Origin: a virus
Virus record (IMG/VR): IMGVR_UViG_3300035670_000147
Coordinates: 1-64,000 of that record
Reading direction: 5' to 3' (one strand)
Length of the DNA stretch: 64,000 nucleotides
Shown: in pieces, positions 3,922 to 57,263 of the stretch
Layout of the letters: each line of letters starts with the position of its first letter
How positions within the stretch are numbered: position 1 is the first letter of the stretch
Notes under the pieces: model-generated
Database searches by the model: none
What the model saw: only the letters and a program-made list of their open reading frames with translations
Told to the model about the DNA's origin: nothing
Position numbers and translations under genes: made by a program

Positions 3922-3972
3922 AGATATCGCAACTCTGCCGCCTGTTTTGCAGCCATGGACGGCGCAATAAAT

Positions 3973-6303
3973 ATGAGCACACACCATAAGACTGCGAATA
4001 CGCCTGATGTCGCCGCGCACCGGGAACTTTCTCCCGACGAAGAGCGCGCCTTGGAAACCGGGAAGTCTCGCTGGCTGCCGCGTATCTTTCAGAGTTACGG
4101 CACGCCGATTCCTGAACTTATGGCGAGCCCCTTGAAGACCGGCCTGATCTTTGGCGTCCCCGCGGGCTTGATCGGCGCTGGGTTGGGCAGCGCGATTGGC
4201 GGAGCGGCGCACGGCGCGAACGGCAAAGGCTACTCGGGGATGGGCGCGCTGCTCGGGGGTTTAGGTGCCGGAGGCTTAGCCGCCTTGGCCGCCGGCATGG
4301 ACCGCGAAGCCAAGAACGAAGGCTTGGAAGAACTCATGCGGCGCATGCCCGAAGGCGCGGCGAAGCGAGATTTGCTCGCCGACCCGCAGTACCAAGCCGA
4401 CTTTCTGGGCTGGGATAATAACAAGATTGTCGCGACGGCTCGGGCTCGCTATTACAGGCCCACGGAGCGATTTAGCAAGCGAACGGAAGACATGCGAGAC
4501 GCCCGGGCTCGCTATAATGAACGCAACAAAACTTCTAGTGTTAACAAGGATGTTTCCATGAGTAAGAACGAGCCGCGTACGCATTTTGTCGCGACGCCTG
4601 CTGCCCAAGCGGCCCGCACGCTGTTAGAAAATAACAACCTGACGCTCTCGGAAAAGATGGCGCAGTACAAAGCCTTGCTCCAGAAGCAGGCGTACGACAG
4701 CCCGACGATGGGCGCGAGCATTCCGCCGATGGCTGGGCCGGCGATGAGCCCGCCGCCGGGCTTCGACCCGTCGAACATGAAGATGCCAGTCTCGCCGACG
4801 ACGGGCTTGCCGATCAATAATCCCGACGCGCCCGCACTGCCCAGTAAGCCGGCCGCTCCGAAGTACACTGGCTCGGCGGACATGGGCGACTACACCGGCG
4901 TCGGCAAGATCGTCGACTCCGAGTTTCTCAAGCATTTATTTGGCGTTGGCGACCGCCGCTCGACACTGTACGACAAGACGTTCGCGCCAATTGGCCGCGG
5001 AATTTCGTCGGGCTTGGGAGCCACGGGTGACTTTCTGGGCAGCATGGGCAGCGCCGGTTTAAACGCCGGCAAATCGTTCGGCAAGTGGCTGAAGCCGGAC
5101 GCGCCTCCGCCTCCGACGCTGTTAGAACAACTCAAGCCGTACGCACCGGCGGCCGCGATTGGCGCTGGCGGTCTGGGCGCGATCGCCTTGGCCGATTACT
5201 TATCCCGGCGCAACAAGAAGAAGAAGAAGCGCCCGCAACAAACTGAAGATGAAGACGCAGGAGAATATTCTATGCCCAAGGCTGCAAATGTTAATTGGTA
5301 CGCGCTGGCCCGACACCGCCAGAAGCAGGCGAACGCGCTAAGTTTGGCGCGCACCGGGACGGGTTTGATCCCATACAGCCGCGTGGGTGCCGGCCTGTCA
5401 CACCTGCGCAGCATGTTGCGAGGCGCCGCTCCGTACGTCGATCCGTTTAATAAAAAGTCGCTGCCGTTCTACGCGGGCAGCCTGTTCGGCGGTGTCAACG
5501 AAGCGACGGGTGGCTTCGGGGTTCGCCCTGCGATCGCCAGCATGTTCAAGGGCAAAGACCCGTCGATGCTCCAGCAGGTCATGAACTCGAAGTACACGCC
5601 CTATGCCGCGGCTGGTTTAGCCGGCGCGGGCTTACTGGGTGGCGCTGCGTACATGGGCAATCGCGCGGGCAAGAATGACGCCAAGAAAAAGAAGAAGCCT
5701 GAAGGAAAGAACGAAAAGCAGTCGAACTTAGGCGGCGCTGGTCTGGGCGCTGGTGCCGGCGCTGGTCTGGGCGGGTTAGCCGGCGGCCTGTACGGCGCGC
5801 TGGCTCCGGGCTACGAAGAAGACCCGATGACCGGGCGTCGTCGTCGGCGGTCCCGGCTGACCGCCGCGCTGCGCGGACTGGCGGGTGGCGCGGCCCTCGG
5901 CGGCCTCGGTGGCGGCGCGGCCGGCTACTTCGCCGGCGACAAAAATATCAAGTCGGTGCTGGAGAAGTTCTTGGCCAACAAGTCGCAGGACGCAGGCCCT
6001 GACGCCGCCGCTGGTATTCGCACAGACGCGACGATGCAGCCTGATCCGGTGGAAGTAGCGAAGCAGGAAGCCTCGCAACCGCCGCCGGCCAGCGCATCCC
6101 CCGCGATTCCGCAAGGGCCGCAAGACGCGAACGCCACGATGGGCGGACAACCAGCGGCGCCGATGGCTCCGCCGGCAATGAGCATGCCACCGCAATCGCC
6201 GGCGCCTCCGGCTGGCGTGCCGCAGTCGCCCGTGATTCCGCAGGGCCCGCAGACCGCGAGCGCCACGATGGGCGCGATGCCGCAGCAGCAGCCCATGATG
6301 TAA
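3973..6303 (+). CDS. large Gly-zipper/Pro-rich putative virion polyprotein
   Basis: Long ORF (upstream ATG at 3955); several GxxxG-rich hydrophobic segments followed by basic tracts; QKQA, EKQS and PKAA motifs. Confidence 0.7.
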   Translation: MSTHHKTANTPDVAAHRELSPDEERALETGKSRWLPRIFQSYGTPIPELMASPLKTGLIFGVPAGLIGAGLGSAIGGAAHGANGKGYSGMGALLGGLGAGGLAALAAGMDREAKNEGLEELMRRMPEGAAKRDLLADPQYQADFLGWDNNKIVATARARYYRPTERFSKRTEDMRDARARYNERNKTSSVNKDVSMSKNEPRTHFVATPAAQAARTLLENNNLTLSEKMAQYKALLQKQAYDSPTMGASIPPMAGPAMSPPPGFDPSNMKMPVSPTTGLPINNPDAPALPSKPAAPKYTGSADMGDYTGVGKIVDSEFLKHLFGVGDRRSTLYDKTFAPIGRGISSGLGATGDFLGSMGSAGLNAGKSFGKWLKPDAPPPPTLLEQLKPYAPAAAIGAGGLGAIALADYLSRRNKKKKKRPQQTEDEDAGEYSMPKAANVNWYALARHRQKQANALSLARTGTGLIPYSRVGAGLSHLRSMLRGAAPYVDPFNKKSLPFYAGSLFGGVNEATGGFGVRPAIASMFKGKDPSMLQQVMNSKYTPYAAAGLAGAGLLGGAAYMGNRAGKNDAKKKKKPEGKNEKQSNLGGAGLGAGAGAGLGGLAGGLYGALAPGYEEDPMTGRRRRRSRLTAALRGLAGGAALGGLGGGAAGYFAGDKNIKSVLEKFLANKSQDAGPDAAAGIRTDATMQPDPVEVAKQEASQPPPASASPAIPQGPQDANATMGGQPAAPMAPPAMSMPPQSPAPPAGVPQSPVIPQGPQTASATMGAMPQQQPMM

Positions 6304-6350
6304 CGACCGCACTTTAACAACACTAGTTATCCCGACAAGGAACTATAGCC

Positions 6351-7142
6351 ATGAGCGACGAGATGAAGAGCCACTGTCCGCCGGAAACCACCGCCCCGAA
6401 GATGCACGCGCACGAGGCGACGGAGAAGACAGAAGATATCAAGCCGAAGTTAATTTCGACGGCGCACAAGCGGCTCAGCCAAGATGAGTTTCAGCGCAAA
6501 GTTGCCATGGTGGCTCGTTTGCATGCAGGAGATAATGGTCTTGAAAAAGAAGCGTACGGCGCGCTTGCCCGCGGCCTGTGGGCACTCGGCGGCAAGTCCT
6601 TAGTAAGCAACGCCAACAAACTCTGGCAGGGCACCAAGGCTGTTGCGAGCACCGGGATTCTGCCCAGCGTCGCCAACACCGCGACGAAGACATGGAAGAA
6701 CCTGCCGGCGCGTATGCTCGTCGGCCAAAAGGGTGTTGGCTCATACTTGATGCACCCGGTCGGCATCGCCTCGACGCTCGCCGGCGCGGCGGCTCCGGCT
6801 GTGCCGTACGTCGGCGGCGCGTTGCAACGGCTGGGCGGCGCCCTCGGCGGCTCGGTTGGCGCTGGCCAGAATGCCCAAGGGTTCGGGGGCGCGGTCGGCG
6901 GTGGCTTGCTAGGCGCGGGGCTGGGTGCCGTGGGCGGCGCGTTGATGCCCGGCGAAGAAGAGTACGAAGACGAGAACGGCAACATCCGCAAGCGTCGGCG
7001 CGGCATGCTCTCGGGCGCGTTGCGCGGCGCCGGTATGGGCGGTATCGCTGGCGGTGTGGGCGGCGCGGCCATGGATTATTTCGGGAAACAGAGCGCGGCG
7101 CAGGAATTCGGCGCGGCGCTCGCCCGCCAATCCCGAGCCTAA
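6351..7142 (+). CDS. glycine-zipper putative virion protein
   Basis: AAGGA RBS; LEKEAY motif; Gly-rich segments around PGEEEYEDENG-RKRRR. Confidence 0.7.
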   Translation: MSDEMKSHCPPETTAPKMHAHEATEKTEDIKPKLISTAHKRLSQDEFQRKVAMVARLHAGDNGLEKEAYGALARGLWALGGKSLVSNANKLWQGTKAVASTGILPSVANTATKTWKNLPARMLVGQKGVGSYLMHPVGIASTLAGAAAPAVPYVGGALQRLGGALGGSVGAGQNAQGFGGAVGGGLLGAGLGAVGGALMPGEEEYEDENGNIRKRRRGMLSGALRGAGMGGIAGGVGGAAMDYFGKQSAAQEFGAALARQSRA

Positions 7143-7224
7143 CGTCGCAAAAGTTAACAGATCGCTGGTGTGCCGGAGTAAAATAAACGGCGGGACCCAT
7201 GGCTTTTACACATGGAGATGTCGC

Positions 7225-8091
7225 ATGTTTATTCGCGCACTATTGACAACGCTGTTGGTGTTGGTCTCGGCGGCTGATTCTTTGCGGGCCGGAACCCGCG
7301 ACCCGAACACCCCGGACCAGAAGTATCTAGAATTTGGCAAGCAGTTTCCGTGGGTGGCGCGCTTCCGGGCGGTCACCGAAATCACGGATAAAAAGACGGG
7401 CGAGAAGCGGCCGACCTTTCAATACGGGTCGGCCGTTATCATTAGGCCCAACTGGGCGCTCACGGCCGCGCATCTGGTCCACAACGCTACGGACCACACG
7501 ATTTTGCGCGACGACGGGACCGAACACGCGCTTCCGGCCGCGATCATTCCCAAAGAGTACGACAGCGAGAACATCGGGTATTACGACCTCGCGCTCTGCT
7601 ACTCGCCCACGGATTTTAAACTCAAATTTTACACGCCCCTGTACGCCGAGCAGGACGAAGTCGGCAAAGCGATTACGATTGCGGGCTACGGCATTACCGG
7701 CACATTTCACACCGGTTGCGCCCTGTCCGACGGCAAAAAACGGGCGGGCCACAACAAGATCGACAGCCACGAGCGGGCGGTGTTAATTTGCTCGCCGTCT
7801 TCGGGCATGACGCGCCTGCCGCTGGAGTTTATGATCGCACCCGGCGACTCTGGGGGCGGCATGTTTATCGGCAATGCGCTGGCCGGAATTAACTCATTTG
7901 TGATGGCCGCCGATAAAAATCCCGACAGCACTTACGGCGACGAAAGCGCATTTACCCGTATCAGTTTGTACATAAATTGGATAGAATCACAGATCGAGCA
8001 GTACGAGCGCGCCCTTGCGGCCCGGGCCACGATGAACGGCACGCTGGACTTCCAAATTCTGGCGGTCGACCTGCCGAGCGAGCACGAATAA
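7225..8091 (+). CDS. trypsin-like (S1) serine protease with signal peptide
   Basis: Catalytic motifs WALTAAH, YDLAL, GDSGGG; hydrophobic N-terminus; GGAG RBS. Confidence 0.9.
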   Translation: MFIRALLTTLLVLVSAADSLRAGTRDPNTPDQKYLEFGKQFPWVARFRAVTEITDKKTGEKRPTFQYGSAVIIRPNWALTAAHLVHNATDHTILRDDGTEHALPAAIIPKEYDSENIGYYDLALCYSPTDFKLKFYTPLYAEQDEVGKAITIAGYGITGTFHTGCALSDGKKRAGHNKIDSHERAVLICSPSSGMTRLPLEFMIAPGDSGGGMFIGNALAGINSFVMAADKNPDSTYGDESAFTRISLYINWIESQIEQYERALAARATMNGTLDFQILAVDLPSEHE

Positions 8092-8115
8092 CCAGCAGTA
8101 TCGTCGAGCCGCCCG

Positions 8116-8211
8116 ATGAAACATATCAACACGTTTTTATTCACCATGATCACGCTCGCAACCGTGCTGGCGACGGGGCTGGCATGGGCGCTGTTATATC
8201 TGCGAGGTTAG
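8116..8211 (+). CDS. 31-aa single-pass membrane peptide
   Basis: MKHINTFLFTMITLATVLATGLAWALLYLRG*, fills the gap between genes. Confidence 0.4.
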   Translation: MKHINTFLFTMITLATVLATGLAWALLYLRG

Positions 8212-8213
8212 TC

Positions 8214-8459
8214 ATGGAGAGTCTGGCGTTTCTAATTTTTTTATTGTGGTCGGCGGTGTTTCTGGGCGGGCCTGTGGCGTATCTGCTCGCGCTGTATAAG
8301 TGGAACATGCTGGCGCTCTTGGCCGCGTGCACGTCGATTTGGCTGGGCGTGTTCTGGTTTGCCACGATCTACACCGGCTGGAAATATCTGGGCCTGCTCT
8401 CGGCGCTGTTGGGGTTGCTGGCGCTGCTCAAAGTGACGGAAAACTTTTATGACAAGTAG
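8214..8459 (+). CDS. small multi-pass membrane protein
   Basis: About three hydrophobic helices; GAGG RBS. Confidence 0.6.
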   Translation: MESLAFLIFLLWSAVFLGGPVAYLLALYKWNMLALLAACTSIWLGVFWFATIYTGWKYLGLLSALLGLLALLKVTENFYDK

Positions 8460-10497: not shown

Positions 10498-10572
10498 AAA
10501 TAGCGTTCGTCGTGGCTTTCGCGGCCTGATACAATCGTCTCATTGGCAAGGATGCCTTCTGGAGACGTGAGC

Positions 10573-10920
10573 ATGGCGGCTCGATTTAAACAGTACCAGT
10601 CTCTCTTGCGGATGCTTAAGAAGGAGTTGCCGGCTGCGTTTCCGGTCAGCGTCCGCCGCGTAAAACTTGCCCGCGTGGAAGGCCGGTGCTGGAAGCACGG
10701 CAAAAAGTTCCACATTCAGGTCGACAGCACGATCGACGAGCACCGGGCGATGGACACGCTTCTGCACGAATGGGCGCACGCCCGCGCGTGGAACCACCGG
10801 CTCGACGCCGCGACCACGGACGACGAATTCAATAAGTTAGCCCATGACGCGGCGTGGGGCGTGGCATTTGCAGAAATTTATTCACTGTATGAGCAGCGAT
10901 TCACCACGGCCAGCATGTAA
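10573..10920 (+). CDS. small HExxH metallopeptidase-like protein
   Basis: DTLLHEWAH motif plus downstream H-D-x-x-W; GGAG RBS. Confidence 0.65.
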   Translation: MAARFKQYQSLLRMLKKELPAAFPVSVRRVKLARVEGRCWKHGKKFHIQVDSTIDEHRAMDTLLHEWAHARAWNHRLDAATTDDEFNKLAHDAAWGVAFAEIYSLYEQRFTTASM

Positions 10921-14916: not shown

Positions 14917-14955
14917 ACGCCCCGCGCACGGATGCCCCAACGCGAAAGGATTCGC

Positions 14956-21007: not shown

Positions 21008-21025
21008 AACTTTTGCGGGTTTGCC

Positions 21026-22948
21026 ATGGATGGCTTCTCTATTCTTGACGGCGTGTGGCGGAAACCGCTGACGAGCCAGCGCGAATACCACGTCGGCAAC
21101 GCGATTGGGTGGCTGGCGCGCACAGAAAAACAAGCCGCCACGCAACACGCCCTCGCCGGCCGGCTGTATGTGGCGAAAAGCGGCTGGCTACTCCTCTCGG
21201 TTCCGAACGCGCTGGTCCGGGGCGTCTACGACGCGATGACCGCCCCCGGCGCCGAACTTCCGCTGGCGGGCACTATGAATGTGCCCAACGTAGCCAGCGA
21301 TGTCTTGAACGCGCATATTTCGGTCATGACCGCCGAAGAAGTCAAAAAGATCGGCGCTGAAAATATCAATGAGCGCGGGCACATGGTCGGCTACTCGCTG
21401 GGCCACCTAAAAGAAATCACGCCGAGGAACGTTGCCGGCGTGAGCAAGGTCTGGGCGCTGCAGGTCTCGTCGCCCATGCTCTCGGCGATTCGTAAAAGTT
21501 ACGGGCTACAGCCGTTCGTAAATGGCCACCCGTTCCACATTACCGTTGCCGTGCGCCGGAAAAACGTGCTGCAGGCCAATAGCACGCGCAAAGCCGCGGC
21601 GGCCGCTAAAAGCCCGCAGCCCCGTGTGCGCGTCGTCGTGCCGTACAAAGACCAGTATTTGATGGAAACGCTCAATAACTCGAAGTGGCCTGAAAATATC
21701 GGCAAACGGCGATTTATCGGTGGCGGTATCGAAACGGGCGAAACACCAGAACAGGCCGCTGCGCGTGAGTTATTCGAAGAACTCGGCGTGAAGATCAAAC
21801 CGACCGCTTTTCGCGCTTTAGGTAACGATCCGCGCGAAGGATGGCAGCACGAGCATTATCTGGAACTGCCCAAGCACAAACTCAAGCCCGGAAATTTTAA
21901 CGCTACCGTTGGTTCTGACGCCGTGGTCACGCTTTCGCACGGGCTGCCCGAAGGCGACGATTATATGGGGCCAGACATCAAAAAACTGCTTGCTCCTGTT
22001 TTGAAGAAGGCAAATGACCTGCTTCACGGCGGCGCGGCAGACAATATGTCCGACAGTAAATTTCCCAAAGAAGAACTTGCCGAAGGAGCAGAGCATGAGC
22101 GCGAGCACACCGACAATGACCAAATCGCCAAAGAAATTGCCAAAGATCATCTGCAAGAAGACCCGGCCTACTACAAAAAAGTAGAGGCGATTGAAAAAGA
22201 CGCGGCTACAGCAGTGGTGCCGGTACCGCAGCCGCCGAAGCCGCCAGAAATGCGGGAAGATGTAACCGCCCCGCCTGAGATGCCCCCGCCCCCGACAGCC
22301 GACGTCGCGTTTGGTGTTGTCCCGCCGCCGGCTCTCCCGCCATCCGGGCAGCAACTCCAAAGCCCGCAGCAGACCCCAGAGCAAGAAGAGCAAGATAAAC
22401 AAGCAGAGTCTAAGGCGCTCTTGTTAGCCGAACTTCAAGCGGCAAAAGAGCACTCAGATAACAAGCGGTACGAACTAAAAACGCAAATTTTGCGGCGATT
22501 AATGCAACAATCGCCGCAAGACTGGCGTGTAGACGATCCAAAACCCTACCACAAAGGCATTACGCACGGGCCGACCAAGTTTAAGTTTCACGTCGAGCCG
22601 ACAGCGATTCCGGCGTCCGTAAAAGCCGCGGCCCGCCAGCCGCGCAGCGCGTACATGTCGGCGCTCTATAACTCGTACGGTCTGCATCGACCAATTACGT
22701 ACAACTACAACAAAACAGTTGCCGAAAACATTCAGGATCAAATGATGATGGTAAAGCAGCGCGGCGACTTCATGCGCAACGCTAAAATTAATCATCAGCG
22801 ATACATGGCCACGCTCGACCCCAAATACCGGTATGAGTTAGCAATGAAAGCCATGAATAACGAACTCGAAGAAGAGCCGATGGTCGACAAAATGATCGGG
22901 CGGTATGGCGATAGTTTTATGAACACGATTTTTGGGAGGCCGAAATGA
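21026..22948 (+). CDS. multidomain protein: 2H phosphoesterase + Nudix hydrolase + DUF5661-like + others
   Basis: HISV/HITV pair; Nudix box GGGIETGETPEQAAARELFEELG; GAEHEREHT...AKDHL.EDP.YY; domains separated by EKQA, RKAA, KKAN, EKDA, DKQA, VKAA. Confidence 0.8.
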   Translation: MDGFSILDGVWRKPLTSQREYHVGNAIGWLARTEKQAATQHALAGRLYVAKSGWLLLSVPNALVRGVYDAMTAPGAELPLAGTMNVPNVASDVLNAHISVMTAEEVKKIGAENINERGHMVGYSLGHLKEITPRNVAGVSKVWALQVSSPMLSAIRKSYGLQPFVNGHPFHITVAVRRKNVLQANSTRKAAAAAKSPQPRVRVVVPYKDQYLMETLNNSKWPENIGKRRFIGGGIETGETPEQAAARELFEELGVKIKPTAFRALGNDPREGWQHEHYLELPKHKLKPGNFNATVGSDAVVTLSHGLPEGDDYMGPDIKKLLAPVLKKANDLLHGGAADNMSDSKFPKEELAEGAEHEREHTDNDQIAKEIAKDHLQEDPAYYKKVEAIEKDAATAVVPVPQPPKPPEMREDVTAPPEMPPPPTADVAFGVVPPPALPPSGQQLQSPQQTPEQEEQDKQAESKALLLAELQAAKEHSDNKRYELKTQILRRLMQQSPQDWRVDDPKPYHKGITHGPTKFKFHVEPTAIPASVKAAARQPRSAYMSALYNSYGLHRPITYNYNKTVAENIQDQMMMVKQRGDFMRNAKINHQRYMATLDPKYRYELAMKAMNNELEEEPMVDKMIGRYGDSFMNTIFGRPK

Positions 22949-31265: not shown

Positions 31266-34200
31266 ATGTCAGACCCGCTGCCCCCGCTGCGCGCCCCCGC
31301 TCCGTTTCCTCCCGCTCCAGCGCTCCCGCAGCCGACACCGCCACAAACGCGCGCATTCGGTGATGTTGGGGCTCTGCGCGACAGCATTTTTAACGAGGCG
31401 CTCCGCTCGGCGTCAGGGATCGAGCCGATTCAGAACGACCTGTATACGTTAAAGTTAACCAACGTCGCGTATACGGGTCCGGAACGCTACTCCCGTAAAG
31501 ACCAAAAGAAAGCGGTGTTAACTCGCGGCTCGTTGGCGCGAAAGTTAACAGGAACGTGGACTTTAATAGAAAATGGCTCGGAAAAGCCTGTCGCTACGCG
31601 ACAGGCTACTATAGCAAACGTGCCATATCTGACCGACTCGGGTACGTTTGTAAACAAAGGTGTCGAATACACGCTGGCACACCAACTCCGACTTCGGCCG
31701 GGCGTGTTCACGCGCGAAAAAGATAACGGCGAACTGGAGTCGCACGTTAACACGCTGCCGGGCAAGGGCCGCTCGCACCGGTATTACATGGACCCCAAAA
31801 CCGGCGAGTTTCAAATCCAAATCGGGCAGGCCAAGATTCCGCTGATGCCGCTGCTGAAGACGCTCGGCGTGCAGGAAAAGCAGATACGGGAAGCGTGGGG
31901 CAACGAGATCGCCTCTGTAAACATGCAGAAGGGCGATGCGGGCACGCTGGATAAACTTTACAGCCGCCTCGTGTTCAAGCCAGACCCCGCCGCAGATCAG
32001 TTAGCCAAGATCAAGGCTATCGCCGCGGAGTTCGCAAAAACAGAGTTAGACGAAGAGGTCACGAAACGAACGCTGGGCAAGCCGTACAAAAATCTCACGC
32101 CGGAAGCGATTCTCGACATCACCAAAAAACTCATCGCTGTTAATCGAAAAGAAGCCGACAGTGATGACCGAGACAGCATGACGTTTCAGCAAGTCTTTGG
32201 GCCGGAGGATTTGATATCAGAACGGTTTGTGAAAGATAAGACCGCGTTGCGTCAATTGTTGTGGAAAGCGACCGCAAAGAAGTCGCTCGACCATATTCCC
32301 AGCGGCGTATTTAACAAAGCCATTACCGCTGCGCTAATTGGCTCTGGGCTGGGTTCATCGCTCGAAGAAATTAATCCGGCAGAAATCTTTGACCATCAAA
32401 CGCGGGTCACCCGCCTTGGTGAGGGCGGCATTGGTTCGATGGACGCCGTACCGGCGGAATCGCGCAGCGTCCAGCCCAGCCATTTCGGGTTTATCGACTA
32501 CCTGCGCACGCCCGAGTCTGGCAAGGTGGGCGTCGACATGCGCTTCGCGTCGGGCGCCCGCAAGTTAGGTAATAACTTGCACACGTTTGTCGTGCCCGTC
32601 AAGAACGCTAACACTGGCGAGACAGAATATAAAACCCCGCAAGAACTGTCGGACATGCCGCTCATGTTTCCGGGCGAAGAGAAGTCCGACCTGCCGATGG
32701 TTGCGGCGCTTGTTAACGGCAAGATCAAATACGTGCCACGCAAGGACGCGCAGTACACCGTGCCGAACATGGACAACACTTTTTCGTCGCTGACAAACAT
32801 GGTGCCGATGAAAAGCATGGTAAAAGGCCAGCGCGTCATCATGGGCAGCCGCATGTTTACGCAGGCGCTTCCGCTTGAAAATGCTGAAGCCCCGTTTGTG
32901 CAGTCCGCTAAGTTTGATAGCGACGGGTCTATATCGCACGAAGACGAAATGGGCGAAAAGTTAGGCGCGATTAAAGCCCAAGTTGGCGGGCAGGTTCTGT
33001 CTGTCACGCCAGACGACATGGTTATTCGCGACAAGGACGGGCAAAAACACACGATAGACCTGTACAACGACATGCCGTTCAACCGAAAGACGTTTTGGAC
33101 GCAGACGCCGACAGTCAAGCCCGGCGATACGGTGCAGCCCGGCCAACTTATTGCCACAAGCAACTTTACTGACAAAAGCGGCTCGGCCGCGCTGGGGCTG
33201 AACTTGCGCGTAGGCTACACGCCGTTTCGTGGTCGGAACTATGAAGACGCGGTTGTGATATCTGAATCGGCGGCCAAGAAACTTACTAGCCAGCACATGT
33301 ATCAGCACGAAGCCGAGTGGGACGACAACACGCACGTCGGAAAAAAGTCTTTTTTGAGTTTGTTTCCCGCCGAATATGACAAGAAGGTGCTAGAAAACTT
33401 TGACGACAACGGCGCAATTAAAAAGGGTTCAATCGTAAACTTCGGTGATCCGCTTGTGCTCGTCGCCAAGAAGCGCGATCAGGTGTACGGCAAAGTACAC
33501 CGCGGCCGAGCGGGTGCTTTTGCAAATGAAACAATTACGTGGGAACATCATTCTCCGGGCGTTGTGACTGACGTTGAGCACACAAAAAAGGGCGTATCGG
33601 TCGTCGTGAAGTCGCAGGCGCAGATGGAGGTTGGCGATAAAATTACGGGTCGTTTCGGCGATAAGGGCGTTGTGTCTGAAATTGTGCCGGACGACCAGAT
33701 GCCGCAGGACGCGAAGGGTCGCCCGCTTGAAATTCTGGTCAGTCCGCTCGGCCTTATAAACCGCGTAAACCCGGCGCAAATTATTGAAGCGGCTCTCGGA
33801 AAAGTTGCCGAAAAAACTGGCAAGCCGTTCAAAATCAAAGACTTCGACAACGACAATGATTTGATCGAAATGGCGATGGCTGAGTTGACTAAAAACGGTC
33901 TGACAGACACCGAAGACCTGATAGACCCCGAGACTGGGCGCAAGATTCGCGGCGTGCTGACTGGCAATCGTTTCTTTATGAAACTGCACCATACGGCAGA
34001 GTCGAAGGGGCAGGGGCGGTCTATTGGTGGTTACACGGCAGAAGGCACGCCGGCAAAAGGCGGCAGCGAAGGCGCCAAGCGTGTCGGCATGTTGGAACTG
34101 GGTGCGCTTCTTTCGCACGGTGCCGGCAAAGTAGTCCGCGACGCCAAAATGGTGCGCGGACAGGCTAACCCTGAGTATTGGACGCAGTTCATGGCCGGTT

Positions 34201-35696
34201 ACGACCCGCCGCTGCCCAAGGTGCCGCACGTCTACGAAAAGTTTGTGAATCAATTGCGAGGCGCCGGCGTTAACGCAGTTCGGACCGGTACGAAAACGCA
34301 CATCATGGCGCTGACCGACAAGAACATCGACGAGTTAGCGGGCGACCGTGAAATCCAGAACGCCGAAACCGTGGATTGGAAGGGCAACCTTAAGCCCGTA
34401 AAGGGCGGGTTGTTTGACGAAACACTCACCGGCGGGCATAACGGCAATCGCTGGTCAAAAATAACATTGCACGAACCGATGCCGAATCCAATCATGGAAG
34501 AACCAATTCGGCGTACGCTTGGGCTGACAGAAAAGAAATTTCGCGCGATACTCGCCGGGCAAGAAAAACTGGGCGACAAAACTGGCCCGACAGCAATTCA
34601 CGAAGCGTTGAAAGCCGTTAACCTGCCGCGCGCAATCGAACAAGCGCGTGCTGATATTAAGTCTGGTCGCCGCACACTGCGCGACGCGGCGGTGCGTCGC
34701 TTGGCGTTTTTGAAGGGCGCCGAAGCAACGGGCGTGCACCCCAAAGACTGGATGCAAACAAAGGTAGGCGTCTTGCCGCCGGCATTTCGCCCCGTGTCGA
34801 CGATGGGCGCAAAAAGAATGCAACTTATCGACGACGCAAACTATTTGTACAAAGAACTGCTTGATTCAAATAACGTGCTGAAAGAAGCGTCTGGATTACT
34901 GTCGGATGTGGGCAACGAGCGGCTGTCGCTGTACGACTCGATGAAAGCCGTCTCAGGTTTAGGCGACCCGCAGCACCCGAAAAACGTCGAGCGAAATGTC
35001 CGCGGATTTTTGTCAAAGATATTTGGTGATAGCCCCAAGTTCGGCACGATGCAGCGCAAGTTGTTGTCGAGCACCGTCGATCTTGTAGGTCGTGCGGTAA
35101 TTTCGCCCAACCCAGACCTCGACATGGACGAGGTAGCGCTGCCCGAAGACAAGGCGTGGGAGATTTACAAGCCGTTCGTGGTTCGCGGCCTTATTCGGCG
35201 CGGAATGCCGCGCATGAACGCGCTGCGCGCCGTTGAAGAACGCAACAAAGAAGCGTTTGCTGAGTTAAATACGCAGATGGGGTCGAAACCAATTGTTATT
35301 AACCGCGCTCCGGTGCTGCATCGATACGGCGTAATGGCGTTTTACCCGCGTCTTACCAAGAACAAAGTCATGGAAGTCAACCCGGTTATTACCAAGGGGT
35401 TCGGGGCCGATTTCGACGGCGACGCGATGCAATATCACGTCCCCAGCACCGACGATGCCGCGAAAGAAGCCATAGAAAAAATGCTGCCTAGCCGCAATTT
35501 GTTTGCGGCGTCCAACTTTAAAGCGCATTACGTGCCCAACAAAGATTACCAAACTGGTGTATACTTAGCGTCCAGCAAGATTAATAGCAAATCAAAACCG
35601 CGCGTATATCGCACCAAAAAAGACGCTCTCGCGGCCTACCGCCGCGGTGACATCGATGTAGACACGCCGGTACATATTGTGGAAGATAAAGCCTGA
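31266..35696 (+). CDS. rpoB: DNA-directed RNA polymerase beta fused to the N-terminal half of beta'
   Basis: Beta motifs TPESGKVG, MGSRMFTQA, NYEDAVVIS, GDKITGRFGDKGV, RVGMLELGAL; then beta' motifs GGLFD, VLPPAFRP, VDLVGRAVI, NRAPVLHR and catalytic GADFDGD. Confidence 0.95.
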   Translation: MSDPLPPLRAPAPFPPAPALPQPTPPQTRAFGDVGALRDSIFNEALRSASGIEPIQNDLYTLKLTNVAYTGPERYSRKDQKKAVLTRGSLARKLTGTWTLIENGSEKPVATRQATIANVPYLTDSGTFVNKGVEYTLAHQLRLRPGVFTREKDNGELESHVNTLPGKGRSHRYYMDPKTGEFQIQIGQAKIPLMPLLKTLGVQEKQIREAWGNEIASVNMQKGDAGTLDKLYSRLVFKPDPAADQLAKIKAIAAEFAKTELDEEVTKRTLGKPYKNLTPEAILDITKKLIAVNRKEADSDDRDSMTFQQVFGPEDLISERFVKDKTALRQLLWKATAKKSLDHIPSGVFNKAITAALIGSGLGSSLEEINPAEIFDHQTRVTRLGEGGIGSMDAVPAESRSVQPSHFGFIDYLRTPESGKVGVDMRFASGARKLGNNLHTFVVPVKNANTGETEYKTPQELSDMPLMFPGEEKSDLPMVAALVNGKIKYVPRKDAQYTVPNMDNTFSSLTNMVPMKSMVKGQRVIMGSRMFTQALPLENAEAPFVQSAKFDSDGSISHEDEMGEKLGAIKAQVGGQVLSVTPDDMVIRDKDGQKHTIDLYNDMPFNRKTFWTQTPTVKPGDTVQPGQLIATSNFTDKSGSAALGLNLRVGYTPFRGRNYEDAVVISESAAKKLTSQHMYQHEAEWDDNTHVGKKSFLSLFPAEYDKKVLENFDDNGAIKKGSIVNFGDPLVLVAKKRDQVYGKVHRGRAGAFANETITWEHHSPGVVTDVEHTKKGVSVVVKSQAQMEVGDKITGRFGDKGVVSEIVPDDQMPQDAKGRPLEILVSPLGLINRVNPAQIIEAALGKVAEKTGKPFKIKDFDNDNDLIEMAMAELTKNGLTDTEDLIDPETGRKIRGVLTGNRFFMKLHHTAESKGQGRSIGGYTAEGTPAKGGSEGAKRVGMLELGALLSHGAGKVVRDAKMVRGQANPEYWTQFMAGYDPPLPKVPHVYEKFVNQLRGAGVNAVRTGTKTHIMALTDKNIDELAGDREIQNAETVDWKGNLKPVKGGLFDETLTGGHNGNRWSKITLHEPMPNPIMEEPIRRTLGLTEKKFRAILAGQEKLGDKTGPTAIHEALKAVNLPRAIEQARADIKSGRRTLRDAAVRRLAFLKGAEATGVHPKDWMQTKVGVLPPAFRPVSTMGAKRMQLIDDANYLYKELLDSNNVLKEASGLLSDVGNERLSLYDSMKAVSGLGDPQHPKNVERNVRGFLSKIFGDSPKFGTMQRKLLSSTVDLVGRAVISPNPDLDMDEVALPEDKAWEIYKPFVVRGLIRRGMPRMNALRAVEERNKEAFAELNTQMGSKPIVINRAPVLHRYGVMAFYPRLTKNKVMEVNPVITKGFGADFDGDAMQYHVPSTDDAAKEAIEKMLPSRNLFAASNFKAHYVPNKDYQTGVYLASSKINSKSKPRVYRTKKDALAAYRRGDIDVDTPVHIVEDKA

Positions 35697-35716
35697 TTGT
35701 TCACACGGAGGTAAAC

Positions 35717-36448
35717 ATGGATTACACGGTAAATCCGGAACTGCTCGCGCTTGCGAACCGGCGCGTATTCGAAAAATCGGCGGTAGTGCCTCCGCAGGGC
35801 GGCATGGGTGTCGACCAGTCGCAGCAACTCGGTATGGCGCCCCCGACCCCGGACGCAATGGGCGCGCAACAGCCGGTTGACCCGGCACAGGCCGCCGCCG
35901 CTGCTGGCGGCGCGCCCCCAGCCGCTCCTCCCGGCATGATGGACCCGGCTATGTTGGGCGCGTTGCCACCCGCCACTCCGACCGCGCCGGCTCCCGGCGC
36001 CGCAGGGCAAAAATTGAAGCCCGAGCAGATGATGCAAATGCTCGATTATCGGCTGTACAACATGCAGCAGCAACTCACGGCGATTATGAACGCTATGGGC
36101 GTGCAAGTCGCGCCGGAGTCGCTTGTGTTGCCTCCCGGCACTACTGGCGCGCCGCCCGCAGAAACTGCGCTTCCGGGCGGCCCCATGGCCCCGCCGCCGG
36201 CACCAGAAGGCGCGGCCGGCCCGCAACCCCCCGGCGGGCCCATGCCTCCCGGAGGTCCGCTGCCTCCGGGCGCACCGCCTGCAGACCCGGCAGCCGGTAA
36301 GCAAGCGAACTGGTGGGAGCGCGTCGAGGCGCACGCCGTTAGCCGCGTAGGCCGCCCCGTAAGCCCCGACATTGTGACCATTGATCTGCAAGCGAAAGTC
36401 GGCGCCGCGAAGGCGTTGCACCGGAGTTTAGCGGACGATGCTCGTTAA
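35717..36448 (+). CDS. Pro/Gly-rich putative virion protein
   Basis: GGAGG RBS; FEKSA and GKQA motifs. Confidence 0.7.
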   Translation: MDYTVNPELLALANRRVFEKSAVVPPQGGMGVDQSQQLGMAPPTPDAMGAQQPVDPAQAAAAAGGAPPAAPPGMMDPAMLGALPPATPTAPAPGAAGQKLKPEQMMQMLDYRLYNMQQQLTAIMNAMGVQVAPESLVLPPGTTGAPPAETALPGGPMAPPPAPEGAAGPQPPGGPMPPGGPLPPGAPPADPAAGKQANWWERVEAHAVSRVGRPVSPDIVTIDLQAKVGAAKALHRSLADDAR

Positions 36449-36659: not shown

Positions 36660-38612
36660 GTGCTAAAAACCACCCTCGGCCAGTTAATGATTAACGAAGC
36701 GCTTCCTGAAGACATGCGCGATTACGAGCGCGTGTTGGACAAGAAGACTATGGGCGCGCTGGCGACTGATCTGGCAAAACGATATCCGGATCGTTATCGC
36801 GAGGTGATGAAAAAAATTCACGACGTCTCTCGCGACGTGGCATACACGACGGGCGGTCTTTCGATGGGCTTGAAGGACATTCGCCCCACGTTTGCCAGCC
36901 AACACGCGCAAATTAAAGTGCGCAAAGAACTGCGGCAGATTCTGGCAGACACGAGTTTGTCAGACAAAGAACGCGAGTTGCGAATCCTCAAACTCGCCGC
37001 CGAGACGCAGCAGAAACTTGTCGAAGACGTATTTAACGAAGCCCGCGACGCGAATAACCCGCTTGCCCATCAAGTGCTGGCCGGCGCGACTGGTAACAAA
37101 TTCATGTTAAATTCGCTACTGGGCGCCGACCTGCAATACGTAGACCACCGCGACCAGCCGATTCCGCTGCCCGTAATGCGGAGTTACAGTCGGGGCTTAA
37201 CTCCTGCAGAGTACTTCGCGGCGTCTTTCGGCACGCGTAAGGGTGTTATTGACGTAAAGACTGCCACAGCAGACGCCGGATTTTACGGCAAGCAACTAAC
37301 GCAGATGGCGCACCGTTTACTCGTTACAGCCGACGATGACGACGACGAAGACAGGCTTAGAACTGCGCACAATCGCGGCCTGCCGTCCGACGTCGACGAT
37401 CCGGACAACGAAGGCGCTTTTTTAGCGCGACCTGTGGGGCCATACAAGCGAAACACTGTACTGACGCCCAAAATTCTCAAAGATATCAAAGCGATGGGCG
37501 TAAAAGATATTTTAGTGAGAAGCCCGCTCGTCGGTGGGCCAGAAGATGGCGGCGTGTACGCCAAAGACGTCGGATACCGCGAAAAAAGTCGGGTGCCGCC
37601 GGTCGGCGATTATGTCGGCATTGCCGCTGCGCAAGCGCTGTCTGAGCCAGTCTCGCAATCGCAACTATCGTCTAAGCACTCGGGCGGTGTTGGCGGCGCA
37701 AAGTCTATTTCTGGCTTCAAGGCTATCAACGCGCTAGTACAAGTGCCGCGCAAATATCCTGACGGCGCGACGCACGCTCAGCGCGAGGGTCGCGTGCAGG
37801 AAATACGCCCGGCGGCGCAGGGCGGATTTTATGTCACGGTAGACGGCGAAGATCATTACGTCCCGGCCGACCGGCAGGTCTCCGTAAAAAAAGGCGACGT
37901 GCTGGAGGCCGGCGACGTGCTGTCCGACGGCATGCCAAACCCGGCCGAAATTGTTAAGCACAAAGGCGTCGGCGAGGGCCGTAAATACTTTGTGCAGGCA
38001 ATGCGCCAAGTTTTAGGCAACTCAGGTATCACCGCTCAGCGCCGAAACATTGAACTCGTGGCGCGGGGTTTGATTAATCACGTTCGGCTGACCGACGAAT
38101 ATGGCGATTACGCTCCGGACGACATTATTCCGTATTCCATGCTTGAGCGCTCGTGGCGCCCGCGCTCCGGAGCCGTGGCGTCAGCGCCCAGCGCGCTTGT
38201 AAATCATTATTTGGAAGAACCCGTACTGCACTACTCGGTCGGCACAAAAATAACAAAAAGCGTCGCTGACAATTTAAAGAAGTACGGTATTGCAACAGTG
38301 CAGGCTCACAAGCAGCCGCCGCCGTTCGAGTCAGAGATGGTGCGCGGCATGGCGAATATATCGAACGACCCCGACTGGATGACCCGCATGCTGGGTTCTT
38401 ATCAGGAGCGCGGGTTTTTAAACAGTGTTCACCGCGGACTGGCCAGCGACACGGCCGGCAGCAGTTACGTTCCGGCGCTGGCACGAGGCGAAGAATTTGG
38501 CAATTCTGGCCCCACAAGCGGCTGGAAACCTGCGCCGCCCTCCGGTAGCATATTGCAGCCCGTCCCCAAGCCCCCGACAAGTCCGCTAGGCTCTGAGCCA
38601 AAAACACTGTAA
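36660..38612 (+). CDS. rpoC: RNA polymerase beta' C-terminal subunit
   Basis: TTLGQL..N, GLTPAEYF..GTRKG..TADAG (bridge helix), VGIAAAQALSEP.SQ.QL..KHSGG (trigger loop). Confidence 0.92.
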   Translation: MLKTTLGQLMINEALPEDMRDYERVLDKKTMGALATDLAKRYPDRYREVMKKIHDVSRDVAYTTGGLSMGLKDIRPTFASQHAQIKVRKELRQILADTSLSDKERELRILKLAAETQQKLVEDVFNEARDANNPLAHQVLAGATGNKFMLNSLLGADLQYVDHRDQPIPLPVMRSYSRGLTPAEYFAASFGTRKGVIDVKTATADAGFYGKQLTQMAHRLLVTADDDDDEDRLRTAHNRGLPSDVDDPDNEGAFLARPVGPYKRNTVLTPKILKDIKAMGVKDILVRSPLVGGPEDGGVYAKDVGYREKSRVPPVGDYVGIAAAQALSEPVSQSQLSSKHSGGVGGAKSISGFKAINALVQVPRKYPDGATHAQREGRVQEIRPAAQGGFYVTVDGEDHYVPADRQVSVKKGDVLEAGDVLSDGMPNPAEIVKHKGVGEGRKYFVQAMRQVLGNSGITAQRRNIELVARGLINHVRLTDEYGDYAPDDIIPYSMLERSWRPRSGAVASAPSALVNHYLEEPVLHYSVGTKITKSVADNLKKYGIATVQAHKQPPPFESEMVRGMANISNDPDWMTRMLGSYQERGFLNSVHRGLASDTAGSSYVPALARGEEFGNSGPTSGWKPAPPSGSILQPVPKPPTSPLGSEPKTL

Positions 38613-38658
38613 ATTATTAGAGTTGCGAGTTTATATTTGCCGCATGGAGGTGGCGCAC

Positions 38659-47630: not shown

Positions 47631-47666
47631 TAGATACAATAACTTTTTAGACATGGAGGTCTAACA

Positions 47667-48260: not shown

Positions 48261-48298
48261 ACTAATCAACCCTAATAGAAGACATGGAGGTCTTTAAA

Positions 48299-49649: not shown

Positions 49650-49660
49650 CGGAGTCAAAA

Positions 49661-52867: not shown

Positions 52868-52937
52868 TCAACGGGGCGCGACTCTGTGGCGGGAGTCGCG
52901 CCCCGTACACCCACGCCACGAAAGGAGGTTGCAAATC

Positions 52938-54389: not shown

Positions 54390-54424
54390 ACGCAGCAACC
54401 GCAGCGCAGAAGGGAGGTAATAAG

Positions 54425-54986
54425 GTGTTTACGTAAATACGGCCCGCGGAGTTAACAACTCGCGCGGGCAATCTATTTTGCGCATTTTAGTTCGTTGGCG
54501 CAGAGTAGACGTAGGACGAAACTAACGAGCACAGGCGAGCGAAAAGTCGCCCGGGGACAAAAGTCGCGACCTCGTCGGTTGCGATACTTTTCGGGGTGGT
54601 TGGTCCTGCACCCATAGAGATACCAGAGAGATAGCCGGGACGTCGCGCAAGCGAAACGCCGGCGACTCGTCTCTGTAAGGCACAGTACCCCGGATTTGTA
54701 GTGGGGCGCGCAAAATGGATAGGCAGGCGCGTTTTATGTAAAATCCGGAGCGCCTGCGGGCGCTTATACGCCACGTCTGAAGGGCCTAGTCCCCGCAGAC
54801 ATGTTTCCTCGTTGTACCTTTCGGCCGCGATAATAATAACTAACGCGCGCCGGTTGTTGCCGCCATGGCCGGTGAACAACGAGCCAGTTAACGCGCGAGC
54901 CCGCGTAAGCGGGTCGTTAACGGGGGACGCCGGGTGGGAGAGTTGCTAGCCTCTCCCACCCGGCGCACATCGCACTTCTTTTTTTT
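54425..54986 (+). ncRNA. candidate large structured ncRNA (about 550 nt), family unknown
   Basis: Dense hairpins, long-range helix, predicted pseudoknot, terminal 16-bp hairpin and T-run; no credible ORF. Confidence 0.55.
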
Positions 54987-55004
54987 AGATATCAGACGCC
55001 GGGG

Positions 55005-55010
55005 TATAAT
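55005..55010 (+). promoter_or_regulatory. -10 box (TATAAT), probably driving a leaderless mRNA
   Basis: TATAAT ends 6 nt before ATG 55017; no SD sequence. Confidence 0.5.
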
Positions 55011-55016
55011 TACGCT

Positions 55017-56306
55017 ATGAGCCAACCACGCATTTTTCCGTTCCGCCGCGTATCTGTCGACCACATGACCCGCGGCGTTTCGCGTGTCTGGTGGCAATTA
55101 GACCGCCTTTTTCGCGACGAGGGTCCGTACTCTTTTCAATTGCAGTACGGCCGCACGGGCGTCCGCGACGCCGCTGACTGGACAAATATCGGGGCGCCCG
55201 TCGTTAATTCATACTTCGCGCTCGACCCAGAGTGGCGCGAAAGCGGCTACGATATAACCTCGCATTATCGTGTCGTTTTAACTACTCCGAACGGTCGCTA
55301 TGTTTCTCAGGCAGCCAGTTGCTTTGGCGAGTTAACCGAAAAAGACTGGTTACTTGCCCGAGAGATTATTCGCAAGGAGCAGTTGCGCAACCGGCTCGTA
55401 TCAATTCCCGGTTATTTGATTAAGCCACTGCGGTACGGTACACCCTGCAAACGGTGCCGCGACCAGTTAACTGACGAAATCTCAGACGCTGATTGCCCGC
55501 TCTGTAGCGGCACCGGTTTCGAGACTGGATACCATACCCCCGTCCCGCTGCAGTGTTGGGATTTGTCGCCGCAAGTTATTCAAGAACAAATCGATAATAA
55601 CATCAAAGGCAATACGCGAGAAAACCCATACGTTAATGCACGCGTAATCGGCTTCCCGGCGTTAAACAAGTACGATATCTGGGCCAACGGCTCGTCCGAC
55701 GAGCGCTGGATGATCGATACAATACAGGTAACAGCCGCCTTGCGGGGCGTGCCGATTATCTATCAAGTGCGCATGGGATTATTACCGTTTAGTAACGCCG
55801 TATACGCAATCGAGATTGGCGGAGAACCAGCCGCTCGCCGCGGGCCCACCCTGCCGATAGAAGGTTGCGGCGACGTTATTGTAGACCACGATTACACGGG
55901 TATTGATGCTTTAATTTATACAACGGCTGCCGGCTGCCCTGTAGAAGGTGCTGATGTTTACTTGTTTACAAAAGAGTCCTTTGACGCGCACGGATTAAAT
56001 ATTGACCGAAGTTTGGCGGCTGGTAAAACAAAAACACGGGTTAACGGGCGCTGGTTACAGTCGCTAAAACTCGACGCGGGCGATTATGTTATCTTGTACG
56101 AGAAGGTCGGCGAGTACGGACCGGACACGCAAGAAATAACCGTCGCGCCTCCCGAGGCCCCGCTGCCAATGTCATATCCGCCGGTTATGGGTTCTCACGA
56201 ACCGCCGCCGGCGCACCAATTACCGGTCGGACGGAAAATACGTACTGTTGTGCCCGGCCGCCCGTCGCCGCCCGATCAGACCGAAAAAGGTTTCTGGGAT
56301 ATATGA
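55017..56306 (+). CDS. putative neck/head-closure protein
   Basis: CxxC...CPLCSGTGF.GY motif; lies between the head and tail genes. Confidence 0.55.
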   Translation: MSQPRIFPFRRVSVDHMTRGVSRVWWQLDRLFRDEGPYSFQLQYGRTGVRDAADWTNIGAPVVNSYFALDPEWRESGYDITSHYRVVLTTPNGRYVSQAASCFGELTEKDWLLAREIIRKEQLRNRLVSIPGYLIKPLRYGTPCKRCRDQLTDEISDADCPLCSGTGFETGYHTPVPLQCWDLSPQVIQEQIDNNIKGNTRENPYVNARVIGFPALNKYDIWANGSSDERWMIDTIQVTAALRGVPIIYQVRMGLLPFSNAVYAIEIGGEPAARRGPTLPIEGCGDVIVDHDYTGIDALIYTTAAGCPVEGADVYLFTKESFDAHGLNIDRSLAAGKTKTRVNGRWLQSLKLDAGDYVILYEKVGEYGPDTQEITVAPPEAPLPMSYPPVMGSHEPPPAHQLPVGRKIRTVVPGRPSPPDQTEKGFWDI

Positions 56307-56470
56307 AAGACCAGCAATTATCGCCGGACAAAGTGAAACTGTTCGAAAAGCCGATTAAACTGTTCTCGAAAATCAGCCTGTTTGGCGACGATAAAGAAGT
56401 CAAAATACTCCCGAAAATAGATTTGCGGCGGGAAAAGGAACAAGAAAATGACCGACTGCCCGAATCCTGA
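56303..56470 (+). CDS. 55-aa hypothetical protein
   Basis: ATGA-coupled ORF MKDQQLSPDK...LPES*. Confidence 0.4.
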   Translation: MKDQQLSPDKVKLFEKPIKLFSKISLFGDDKEVKILPKIDLRREKEQENDRLPES

Positions 56471-57164
56471 GCAAGACAACACCCCGTTTGAAGACCAGTT
56501 TCCGCCCGGGAGTGGTCCGGAAAACAAGGTAGCAAAGGTCAGCGCGCTGTGTTCGTATGGAATGCGGCCGCACGTAATGACCGGATTTCTGCGGCAACTA
56601 TTAATCGGCCACTTCTCTGACCCCGAAAACATTGAAGAGCCGCGTATACGCCGCCACATTCAAGAAATCGGAACATGGCAACCGTCGCAAAACGGTTTGA
56701 ACTCGGGCGGGATTTTGATAGAAAGTATTACTAGATGGGCGCCAAATACCGCCGATAAACGTCCGGCCATACTAATTAAAAGAAATGGCTGGCAGTGGTC
56801 TTCGCGAGTAATTGGTGACAGGTCCGTTGAAAATCTTTATACTGGAGAGACAGGTTACGTAGGTTTCTGGGAAGGCAGCCATACACTATTCTGCCTCGCC
56901 CAAAACGGTGCCGAAGCCGAGTTTTTATCCACGGAGGTGTTCAAGTTTTTAATACTTTTCTCGCCAATGATTAGGGAACAAATGGATTTGTTTAAATTCA
57001 TGCCCACCCAAGTCGGCGGTGTTGGGGAAGTACAAGAGGTGATGCAGGGGTATGCCGTCCCGATCACTGTGACGTATGTGGCCGAGGAAGCGTGGTCGCT
57101 CCAGCCGTACGTCCCGCGGCTTAAGCGGATTGTCTTTAAGGCATCAGATTTGTTGTCAGGTTAA
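56448..57164 (+). CDS. putative tail terminator/completion protein
   Basis: RPAILIKR motif; directly upstream of the sheath gene. Confidence 0.55.
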   Translation: MTDCPNPEQDNTPFEDQFPPGSGPENKVAKVSALCSYGMRPHVMTGFLRQLLIGHFSDPENIEEPRIRRHIQEIGTWQPSQNGLNSGGILIESITRWAPNTADKRPAILIKRNGWQWSSRVIGDRSVENLYTGETGYVGFWEGSHTLFCLAQNGAEAEFLSTEVFKFLILFSPMIREQMDLFKFMPTQVGGVGEVQEVMQGYAVPITVTYVAEEAWSLQPYVPRLKRIVFKASDLLSG

Positions 57165-57263
57165 ATTTTGTCGCGAGGTGTTTTTTTCAAGCATGAGTGG
57201 TTGTGTATACTACTCGCTAAGCACTTGACCGCACACAAATAACTGAGGCACGGAGGCCTTCGC

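Follow-up and report, generated by a model that had tools for sequence, protein, structure and literature searches.

Hairpins of CsrA-operator geometry on ribosome-binding sites of capsid, sheath, and other genes in an uncultured phage family that carries csrA

The first 64,000 nt of the IMG/VR virus record IMGVR_UViG_3300035670_000147, here called the window, include the genes for a major capsid protein (MCP) and a tail sheath protein, and the Shine-Dalgarno (SD) sequences of these and several other genes lie in the A-N-G-G-A-N hexaloops of short hairpins. These hairpins are real, selected RNA structures with the geometry of operators for the translational regulator CsrA, and csrA is nearly universal in the phage family concerned. 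The record has a total length of 73,293 nt and a completeness of 36% (CheckV), and the 72 to 73 genes called are all on the + strand of the window. A megablast search of the capsid region against cultured phages gave no match, and the best cultured capsid matches obtained by tblastn, from Vibrio phages D69, D181, and D148 and Salmonella phage Arash, were only 28% identical. Relatives were collected by a capsid-protein scan of IMG/VR, which yielded 65 loci with identities of 54% to 99%. Retention of the MCP and sheath hairpins through compensatory stem changes was traced in about 60 related phage records, mostly 100 to 235 kb in length and many of them 190 to 235 kb. The closest complete relative, G001, is collinear with 93% of the record length at a nucleotide identity of 78%.

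Hairpins on Shine-Dalgarno sites of the window

The original prediction, made from the sequence of the window, listed ten hairpins with ANGGAN loops on translation starts and proposed that they form a CsrA-gated regulon of virion genes. All ten sequences are present where it placed them. In total, 17 of the 227 ANGGAN hexamers on the + strand are flanked by at least three Watson-Crick pairs, compared with about 3.9 expected at a positional background of 1.7%, and the corresponding count on the − strand is 1 of 90. ANGGAN was the top-ranking of the 256 XNYZWN loop classes (binomial p 5e-7). Sites were regarded as SD positioned when the loop starts 8 to 25 nt ahead of a called start codon, which applies to 27 ANGGAN sites in the window. 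Two null models were used, in which either the 5′ flank alone was shuffled or the 5′ flanks were permuted among genes, with the SD, spacer, and start left unchanged. Stems of at least four Watson-Crick pairs were found at 4 of the 27 sites, versus expectations of 0.14 (P 0/20000) and 0.30 (P 5e-5). When G-U pairs were allowed, 5 of the 27 sites had at least four pairs, versus means of 0.66 to 0.82 (largest P of these nulls, 4.5e-4). No four-bp stem remained after the 5′ flank was slid by 1 to 10 nt. These SD-preserving nulls reject, for the core set, the explanation that the hairpins follow from SD composition alone. The stems occur almost wholly on SDs of the A[CT]GGAG-G type, and none is on the AAGGAG SDs of the window. 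Coding-internal ANGGAN hexamers with 3-bp stems amounted to 6 of 123 in frame 0 and 3 of 18 in frame 2, which are raw counts without a frame-aware null.

Six of the ten predicted hairpins (14942, 35698, 38639, 47647, 48279, and 57245) are supported as hairpins on starts, and five of them (47647, 48279, 38639, 57245, and 14942) pass the stem criteria (Table 1). The imperfect hairpin at 35698 is not the minimum-free-energy (MFE) fold in the window; its counterpart in G001 is a perfect 6-bp hairpin, gtttac-ATGGAG-gtaaat, and it is absent from the relative G003. The hairpin at 38639, which precedes an 800-amino-acid (aa) protein of no recognized family, is unchanged in G001 and has the stem cagc/gctg in G003. 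The hairpin at 14942 is identical in G001 and therefore provides no covariation evidence. The hairpins at 47647 and 48279 have AGACATGGAGGTCT in common and are possibly not independent. The 197-aa gene behind the former had been labeled as decoration, a label for which PHROGs and Pfam offer no family support.

The predicted hairpin at 10545 proved to be the tip of a larger conserved hairpin (MFE, −13.6 kcal/mol; z, −2.47; 1/200 shuffles), whose consensus structure is retained in G001 and G003 with two pairs altered on both sides. The remaining three sites, at 3952, 4543, and 21023, are at chance level. The site at 4543 lies within an open reading frame (ORF) encoding 782 aa, the coding score of which continues to climb 5′ of an in-frame ATG (4558), and a tblastn search with 80 residues from this ATG found no match in seven relatives. 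At 21023, GCT-ATGGAC-AGC in G003 corresponds to one compensatory change, which is suggestive only. It had also been pointed out that several loops contain GGAT or GGAC, which are poor SD sequences. Such loops belong to the three chance-level sites and, among the supported ones, to 14942 and the apical loop of 10545 (both AAGGAT); the other supported SD-adjacent loops are A[CT]GGAG. In addition, the leader (7206 to 7224) of a protease-like gene (7225 to 8091; phrog_9683) contains ACA-CATGGAGA-TGT, in which three base pairs close an 8-nt loop that includes GGAG, possibly a relaxed form of the same hairpin element.

Table 1. Hairpins and virion genes located in the window
Feature	Position	Strand	Details
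MCP hairpin, gaagac-ATGGAG-gtcttt	48278..48295	+	Stem ends 3 nt ahead of ATG 48299; MFE fold, −5.4 kcal/mol, 79% of ensemble
MCP gene, 308 aa	48299..49225	+	phrog_2522 major head protein, E 2.4e-5
Hairpin of 197-aa gene, ttagac-ATGGAG-gtctaa	47647..47664	+	Stem ends 2 nt ahead of ATG 47667; gene directly upstream of capsid gene
Sheath hairpin, gaggc-ACGGAG-gcctt	57245..57260	+	Stem ends 3 nt ahead of ATG 57264
Tail sheath gene, 1185 aa	57264..60821	+	PHROG tail sheath families at residues ~950-1105
Hairpin, tgccgc-ATGGAG-gtggcg	38638..38655	+	4 Watson-Crick and 2 G-U pairs; stem ends 3 nt ahead of GTG 38659; MFE, −9.7 kcal/mol
Imperfect hairpin, TGTTCAC-ACGGAG-GTAAACA	35698..35717	+	7 pairs with one mismatch; abuts ATG 35717 of 243-aa gene
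Hairpin, gcga-AAGGAT-tcgc	14942..14955	+	Abuts ATG 14956 of 211-aa gene
Longer hairpin with apical GGC-AAGGAT-GCC (3-bp stem)	10536..10567	+	3′ arm pairs with GGAG SD of gene starting at 10573
Unsupported site, GCC-ATGGAC-GGC	3952..3963	+	3-bp stem, chance-level length; ATG of the window is ACG in G001
Unsupported site, AAC-AAGGAT-GTT	4543..4554	+	3-bp stem within 782-aa ORF 3955-6303
Uncertain site, GCC-ATGGAT-GGC	21023..21034	+	3-bp stem, chance-level length; start codon inside loop

Conservation of the hairpins and occurrence of csrA in the relatives

The orthologous genes of G001 have counterparts of all six supported hairpins. The MCP leaders of the family contain the stem variants gaagac/gtcttt, agaac/gttct, ggaac/gttcc, ggac/gtcc, aaac/gttt, gcac/gtgc, taac/gtta, and cgatc/gatcg, and the loop is A[CT]GGAG in every one of them. 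In an alignment of all 38 distinct capsid leaders, including the stemless ones, 33 double-changed cells were counted versus 13.5 ± 3.1 in shuffles, and the covariation score was 0.380 versus 0.136 for shuffled leaders (0/500) and at most 0.204 when the pairing partner was slid. A homologue scan with the sheath N terminus matched only G001, and the orthologous sheath leaders were then located in 33 of 35 records by genome search. The 28 distinct sheath leader sequences of the window and its relatives gave 25 double-changed cells versus 13.1 ± 2.8 in shuffles and a score of 0.392 versus 0.148 (0/500), with slid partners reaching at most 0.233. Covariation at the two independent leaders of the MCP and sheath genes bears out the earlier observation that the stems differ while the loop is kept. 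By informal comparison, the leader of the 197-aa gene varies in a similar way, its orthologues carrying the stems agac/gtct, taagac/gtctta, aaac/gttt, agcat/gtgct, gaat/gttc, gtgaac/gttcac, and ttgtc/gacaa. The restriction to the sense strand and the presence of G-U pairs, including those at 38639, indicate an RNA rather than a DNA element. The spacer just 5′ of the capsid hairpin of the relatives (L013:2951-2984 and others) often consists of TAACTAA-type repeats, which are A/T rich and contain stops in all frames and may be a processing or ribosome-release signal.

The geometry of the hairpins was determined by a register test in which each SD-positioned GGA was combined with stems of at least 4 pairs and 0 to 5 loop nucleotides on either side (36 combinations). 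Only the register with 2 nt before and 1 nt after GGA, i.e., the hexaloop, was directly enriched, and this was the case in csrA-bearing genomes alone; the rise in the 3/2 and 4/3 registers came only from these hairpins when their inner pairs are opened. The 63 hairpins of four csrA-bearing relatives have stems of 4 to 8 bp, and 59 of them end 0 to 5 nt ahead of the start. Of the 63, 57 have A at loop position 1 and 37 are closed by C-G. When hairpin and non-hairpin SDs of the same genomes were compared, A occupied position 1 in 47 of 52 and 166 of 360 cases, respectively (p 4e-10), an excess for which SD pairing alone is an insufficient explanation. The hairpins fit the CsrA/RsmE consensus in three respects: GGA is held in a loop on a short stem, the loop is an A-N-G-G-A-N hexaloop, and it overlaps with the SD or start. 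This consensus is (A/U)CANGGANG(U/A) for RsmE (PMC6849547) and RUACARGGAUGU, with GGA placed in a hairpin loop, for CsrA as derived by systematic evolution of ligands by exponential enrichment (PMC4347634).

The original prediction had asked for a csrA gene elsewhere in the genome. The record, a fragment, contains none, and 17 of the 20 relatives with a completeness of at least 90% encode csrA. Matches to PF02599 above the curated cutoff were obtained in 5 of 5 complete relatives and in 20 of 40 further records, including 12 of the 15 of these that are at least 90% complete. In G001, csrA is located at about 156 kb, outside the part syntenic with the record of the window. A tblastn search with CsrA of the family found the gene in 84 of 50,697 phage records, and a published survey gives 30 of 2517 phages (PMC7366521).

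The CsrA of relative G005 aligns over its full length with E. coli CsrA and with the RsmE chain in the RNA complex 2jpp (E 1.9e-16). The CsrA of G001 is more divergent but still reaches 55.7 bits on PF02599 and retains the C-terminal V-x-R-x-E, the Arg and Glu of which are kept across the full-length CsrA sequences of the family. Both the N-terminal MLxLxR and the C-terminal V-x-R-x-E segments are present, as revealed by alignments to 2jpp, 2bti, 1y00, and 1t3o and by the family sequences. These two segments of CsrA are RNA binding. The SD of csrA itself lies in a hairpin of this kind in 4 of 25 csrA genes (G004, G021 twice, and G023), each with a different stem.

Some variation was observed among the CsrA proteins. 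G004 encodes a 163-aa protein (L067:1165-1653, − strand) with two tandem CsrA domains, which would combine in one chain a fold that is normally a homodimer, and its gene has the hairpin atcga-AAGGAG-tcgat 1 nt ahead of the ATG. G021 contains two separate csrA genes. Many CsrA proteins of a shallow clade (L070, L073, L075, L081-L083, L088, L089, and others) have a conserved C-terminal G-L-E-R-P/Q after a basic stretch, which might serve to dock a partner, and others have a 40-aa Ser/Thr-rich tail in its place.

Hairpin abundance was compared between four complete csrA-bearing genomes and the three relatives without csrA that are at least 90% complete (90% to 100%). The csrA-bearing genomes contain 15, 14, 10, and 24 hairpins versus 1.1 to 3.6 expected, and in none of them did any of 3000 permutations reach the observed number; the figure of 10, from G004, is an underestimate, because the simple gene caller assigns strands poorly in this genome of 69% G+C and 34 hairpins lie on the called-antisense strand. 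The csrA-less relatives contain 2, 1, and 1 hairpins among 210 to 291 SD-positioned GGA sites (P 0.8 to 0.9), and their orthologous MCP, neighbor, and sheath leaders are stemless. An annotation-free count, made on the strand carrying most ANGGAG hexamers, revealed stems of at least 4 bp on 7% to 13% of these hexamers in csrA-bearing genomes versus 0% to 1.8% in csrA-less genomes, with a background of 1.3% to 2.2%.

The genes with hairpins are mostly unannotated by PHROGs and Pfam. The predicted confinement of the regulon to virion genes was not upheld, as the G001 set adds a glycosyltransferase and many unannotated genes. The codon-usage score per codon did not differ between hairpin genes and others in four genomes (Mann-Whitney p 0.12 to 0.82).

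Several further features of the phages were noted. The sheath protein is unusually long, with Ig-like/decoration-type domains (residues ~390 to 650) inserted ahead of the sheath core. Pieces of a multisubunit RNA polymerase are encoded at 31266 to 35696 and 36660 to 38612, amid virion-module genes; they comprise a 1476-aa protein in which Rpb2 domain 6/3 is joined to Rpb1 domains 1/2 (a beta/beta′-N fusion) and a 650-aa protein with Rpb1 domain 5. The G001 genome contains 9 tRNAs by Rfam and a full-length transfer-messenger RNA (tmRNA) (L097:7246-7602, − strand; Rfam 125.6 bits) that carries GASAPALAA as its unusual tag and adjoins a tRNA gene cluster. A weak hint to the host comes from a 15.7-kb contig (L171) that encodes a capsid protein of 67% identity and was binned to a metagenome-assembled genome (MAG) of an uncultured member of the Nannocystaceae, and two contigs of another MAG hold fragments with 92% to 97% identity. 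Three DNA sequencing runs from one subsurface-metagenome study cover most of the window, one of which may be its source, and one marine-metagenome run covers about half. Two RNA library runs of one freshwater study hold small shares of it, and the RNA-library contigs include the capsid leader GGAAC-ATGGAG-GTTCC of a relative, spanning the gene junction; these contigs lack transcript ends and may reflect DNA carryover and are thus uninformative on processing or level.

A putative CsrA regulon and its alternatives

The hairpins are probably binding sites of the phage's own CsrA that together would form a translational regulon. The SD is held in a fixed hairpin on a subset of mRNAs, namely, those of the MCP, its upstream neighbor, the tail sheath, and about 10 to 25 other genes per genome. 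Each hairpin has a free-sequence stem of 4 to 8 bp and an A-N-G-G-A-G hexaloop that is usually closed by C-G, and it ends 0 to 5 nt ahead of the start. In the proposed mechanism, it would serve as an operator for the phage-encoded CsrA-family protein. Once bound, CsrA would lock the hairpin across the SD in competition with the 30S subunit, as canonical CsrA/RsmE proteins do, repression being assumed. The predicted outcome would be a post-transcriptional regulon of the phage over its own genes. The initial idea of a phage-wide CsrA-type regulon on SD sites, with a CsrA that may be phage encoded, is upheld in part. Its core has strong circumstantial support from the covariation of the hairpins, their CsrA/RsmE geometry, the prevalence of csrA in near-complete relatives, and the scarcity of hairpins in csrA-less ones, and three of its ten sites are at chance level. 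Under this proposal, phage CsrA has a specific, testable role and a defined RNA to bind, and the compact, portable protein/hairpin pair might become a tool for translational control.

A number of observations weigh against this proposal. A CsrA profile search of the 73,293-nt record gave no match, and most csrA genes of the shallow clade are without a hairpin of their own. Part of the agreement with the consensus is imposed by the SD itself (GGAGG), and the folding energies of single leaders are ordinary (z, −0.7 to +0.5, save for 10545), so that thermodynamics by itself would have missed the hairpins. Candidate cofactors were not found either: a scan of the whole G001 genome at Rfam gathering thresholds detected no sponge RNA of the CsrB/RsmY/Z type, with the tmRNA and tRNAs as its only hits, and FliW (PF02623) was found in 0 of 5 genomes. 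It is also not obvious why a phage would repress the proteins that it needs in the largest amount. A second GGA within 10 to 45 nt is not enriched, being present at 34 of 52 hairpin and 244 of 360 non-hairpin SD sites; two GGA sites are present at 10545. On the MCP tree, one well-supported branch separates all csrA-less genomes from the rest, and the association of csrA with hairpins is accordingly one evolutionary contrast. Furthermore, three unrelated smaller csrA-bearing phages, Providencia phage PSTCR8lys, Vibrio phage VvAW1, and Pseudomonas phage phi297, contain 0, 0, and 1 hairpins, respectively, versus 0.5 to 0.8 expected, which indicates that a phage csrA gene by itself is not predictive of hairpins.

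The last three of these observations also favor a possible, though less probable, explanation in which the hairpin acts in cis only. It would then keep a strong SD exposed in the loop and out of reach of long-range pairing in long late transcripts, tune initiation, or shield the mRNA from nucleases, and the phage CsrA would act on host mRNAs. That the loop is the SD itself and that the stem ends so close to the start would suit such an element, and published proposals for phage CsrA concern host manipulation (PMC8450108, PMC11879866). However, a cis element has no evident need for the exact loop register (1 of 36), for A at position 1 (90% versus 46%), or for C-G closure, all of which are features of CsrA/RsmE recognition, and equally SD-rich sister phages manage without the hairpins. 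Moreover, the G-U that follows GGAG is part of the SD, and its pairing should hinder binding of the 30S subunit. The geometry would suit a generic CsrA/RsmE protein as well, and a correlation between phage and host csrA presence has been reported (PMC8450108), both of which would agree with host CsrA as the partner. Host CsrA would throttle the abundant late phage mRNAs or be titrated by them as by a sponge, with the phage csrA as a spare copy or competitor. This is quite unlikely, since within the family the hairpins follow the phage's own csrA, the only hint to a host is a MAG-binned contig, and the many GGA sites per RNA that a sponge should have are not seen. Least likely is an origin by chance or by the composition of SD-rich leaders, or in DNA-level palindromes bound by a protein. 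The 3 of 10 listed sites with 3-bp stems at background frequency and the ordinary folding z-scores are what chance would produce, and chance stands as the explanation for 3952 and 4543. It is rejected for the core set, as SD-preserving nulls fail in five genomes and the stems covary at two leaders, and DNA palindromes are contradicted by constant loops with variable stems, the G-U pairs, and the restriction to the sense strand.

If the hairpins do bind the phage's own CsrA, the regulon might act as an assembly checkpoint, an unlikely extension suggested by analogy with the flagellin CsrA-FliW switch. CsrA would silence the mRNAs of the capsid, the sheath, and their neighbors until it is removed by a phage protein that reports assembly or by an unrecognized phage RNA, and the removing factor may dock on the G-L-E-R-P tail of the shallow-clade CsrA. 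The most abundant virion proteins would thereby be translated in step with morphogenesis. If true, this would be the first virus with a CsrA circuit on its own structural genes.

Comparison with known systems

Phage-borne csrA (PF02599) has been reported previously, and these reports either suggest that it acts on the host or assign it no definite role (PMC7366521, PMC8450108, PMC11879866). One of them describes the role of phage CsrA in the phage life cycle as previously untested (PMC11879866), and in none of the accessible texts are cognate sites in the phages' own genes described; three phages of this kind are those without hairpin excess above. The literature searched, which did not extend to subscription journals and supplementary files, contained nothing relevant on a phage CsrA acting on phage genes. 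The phages described here are an uncultured family of about 200 kb in which csrA is paired with a set of CsrA-shaped putative operators on the family's own ribosome-binding sites.

The closest parallel is CsrA/RsmE at SD hairpins, such as RsmE on hcnA (2jpp) and the targets of E. coli CsrA, which share with the phage system a GGA in a C-G-closed A-N-G-G-A-N hexaloop over the SD and a regulator of PF02599. Unlike in those systems, a lytic-type phage of about 200 kb encodes both the regulator and its putative targets, capsid and sheath genes among them, the leaders are mostly single site, a sponge RNA was not found in G001, and the binding is a predicted one. In the CsrA-FliW-flagellin (hag) switch of Bacillus subtilis, CsrA sits on the SD hairpin of the flagellin mRNA, whose product is a highly abundant structural protein that assembles by itself. 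The phage hairpins similarly occupy SDs on mRNAs of abundant structural proteins but are not accompanied by a FliW homologue in the five phage genomes. The coat protein/operator hairpins of RNA phages (MS2 and PP7) are small hairpins with a sequence-specific loop and a free stem over a translation start. The phage hairpins resemble them in having a specific loop on the start and differ in that MS2 and PP7 use another protein and a single operator per genome and are RNA phages. RegA of phage T4 is a phage-encoded repressor that acts on a set of phage mRNAs, those of early genes, at their initiation regions. It has an unrelated fold and sites that are not GGA hairpins. If the proposed binding holds, CsrA, too, would be a translational regulator that a phage encodes and directs at its own genes, as T4 RegA is.

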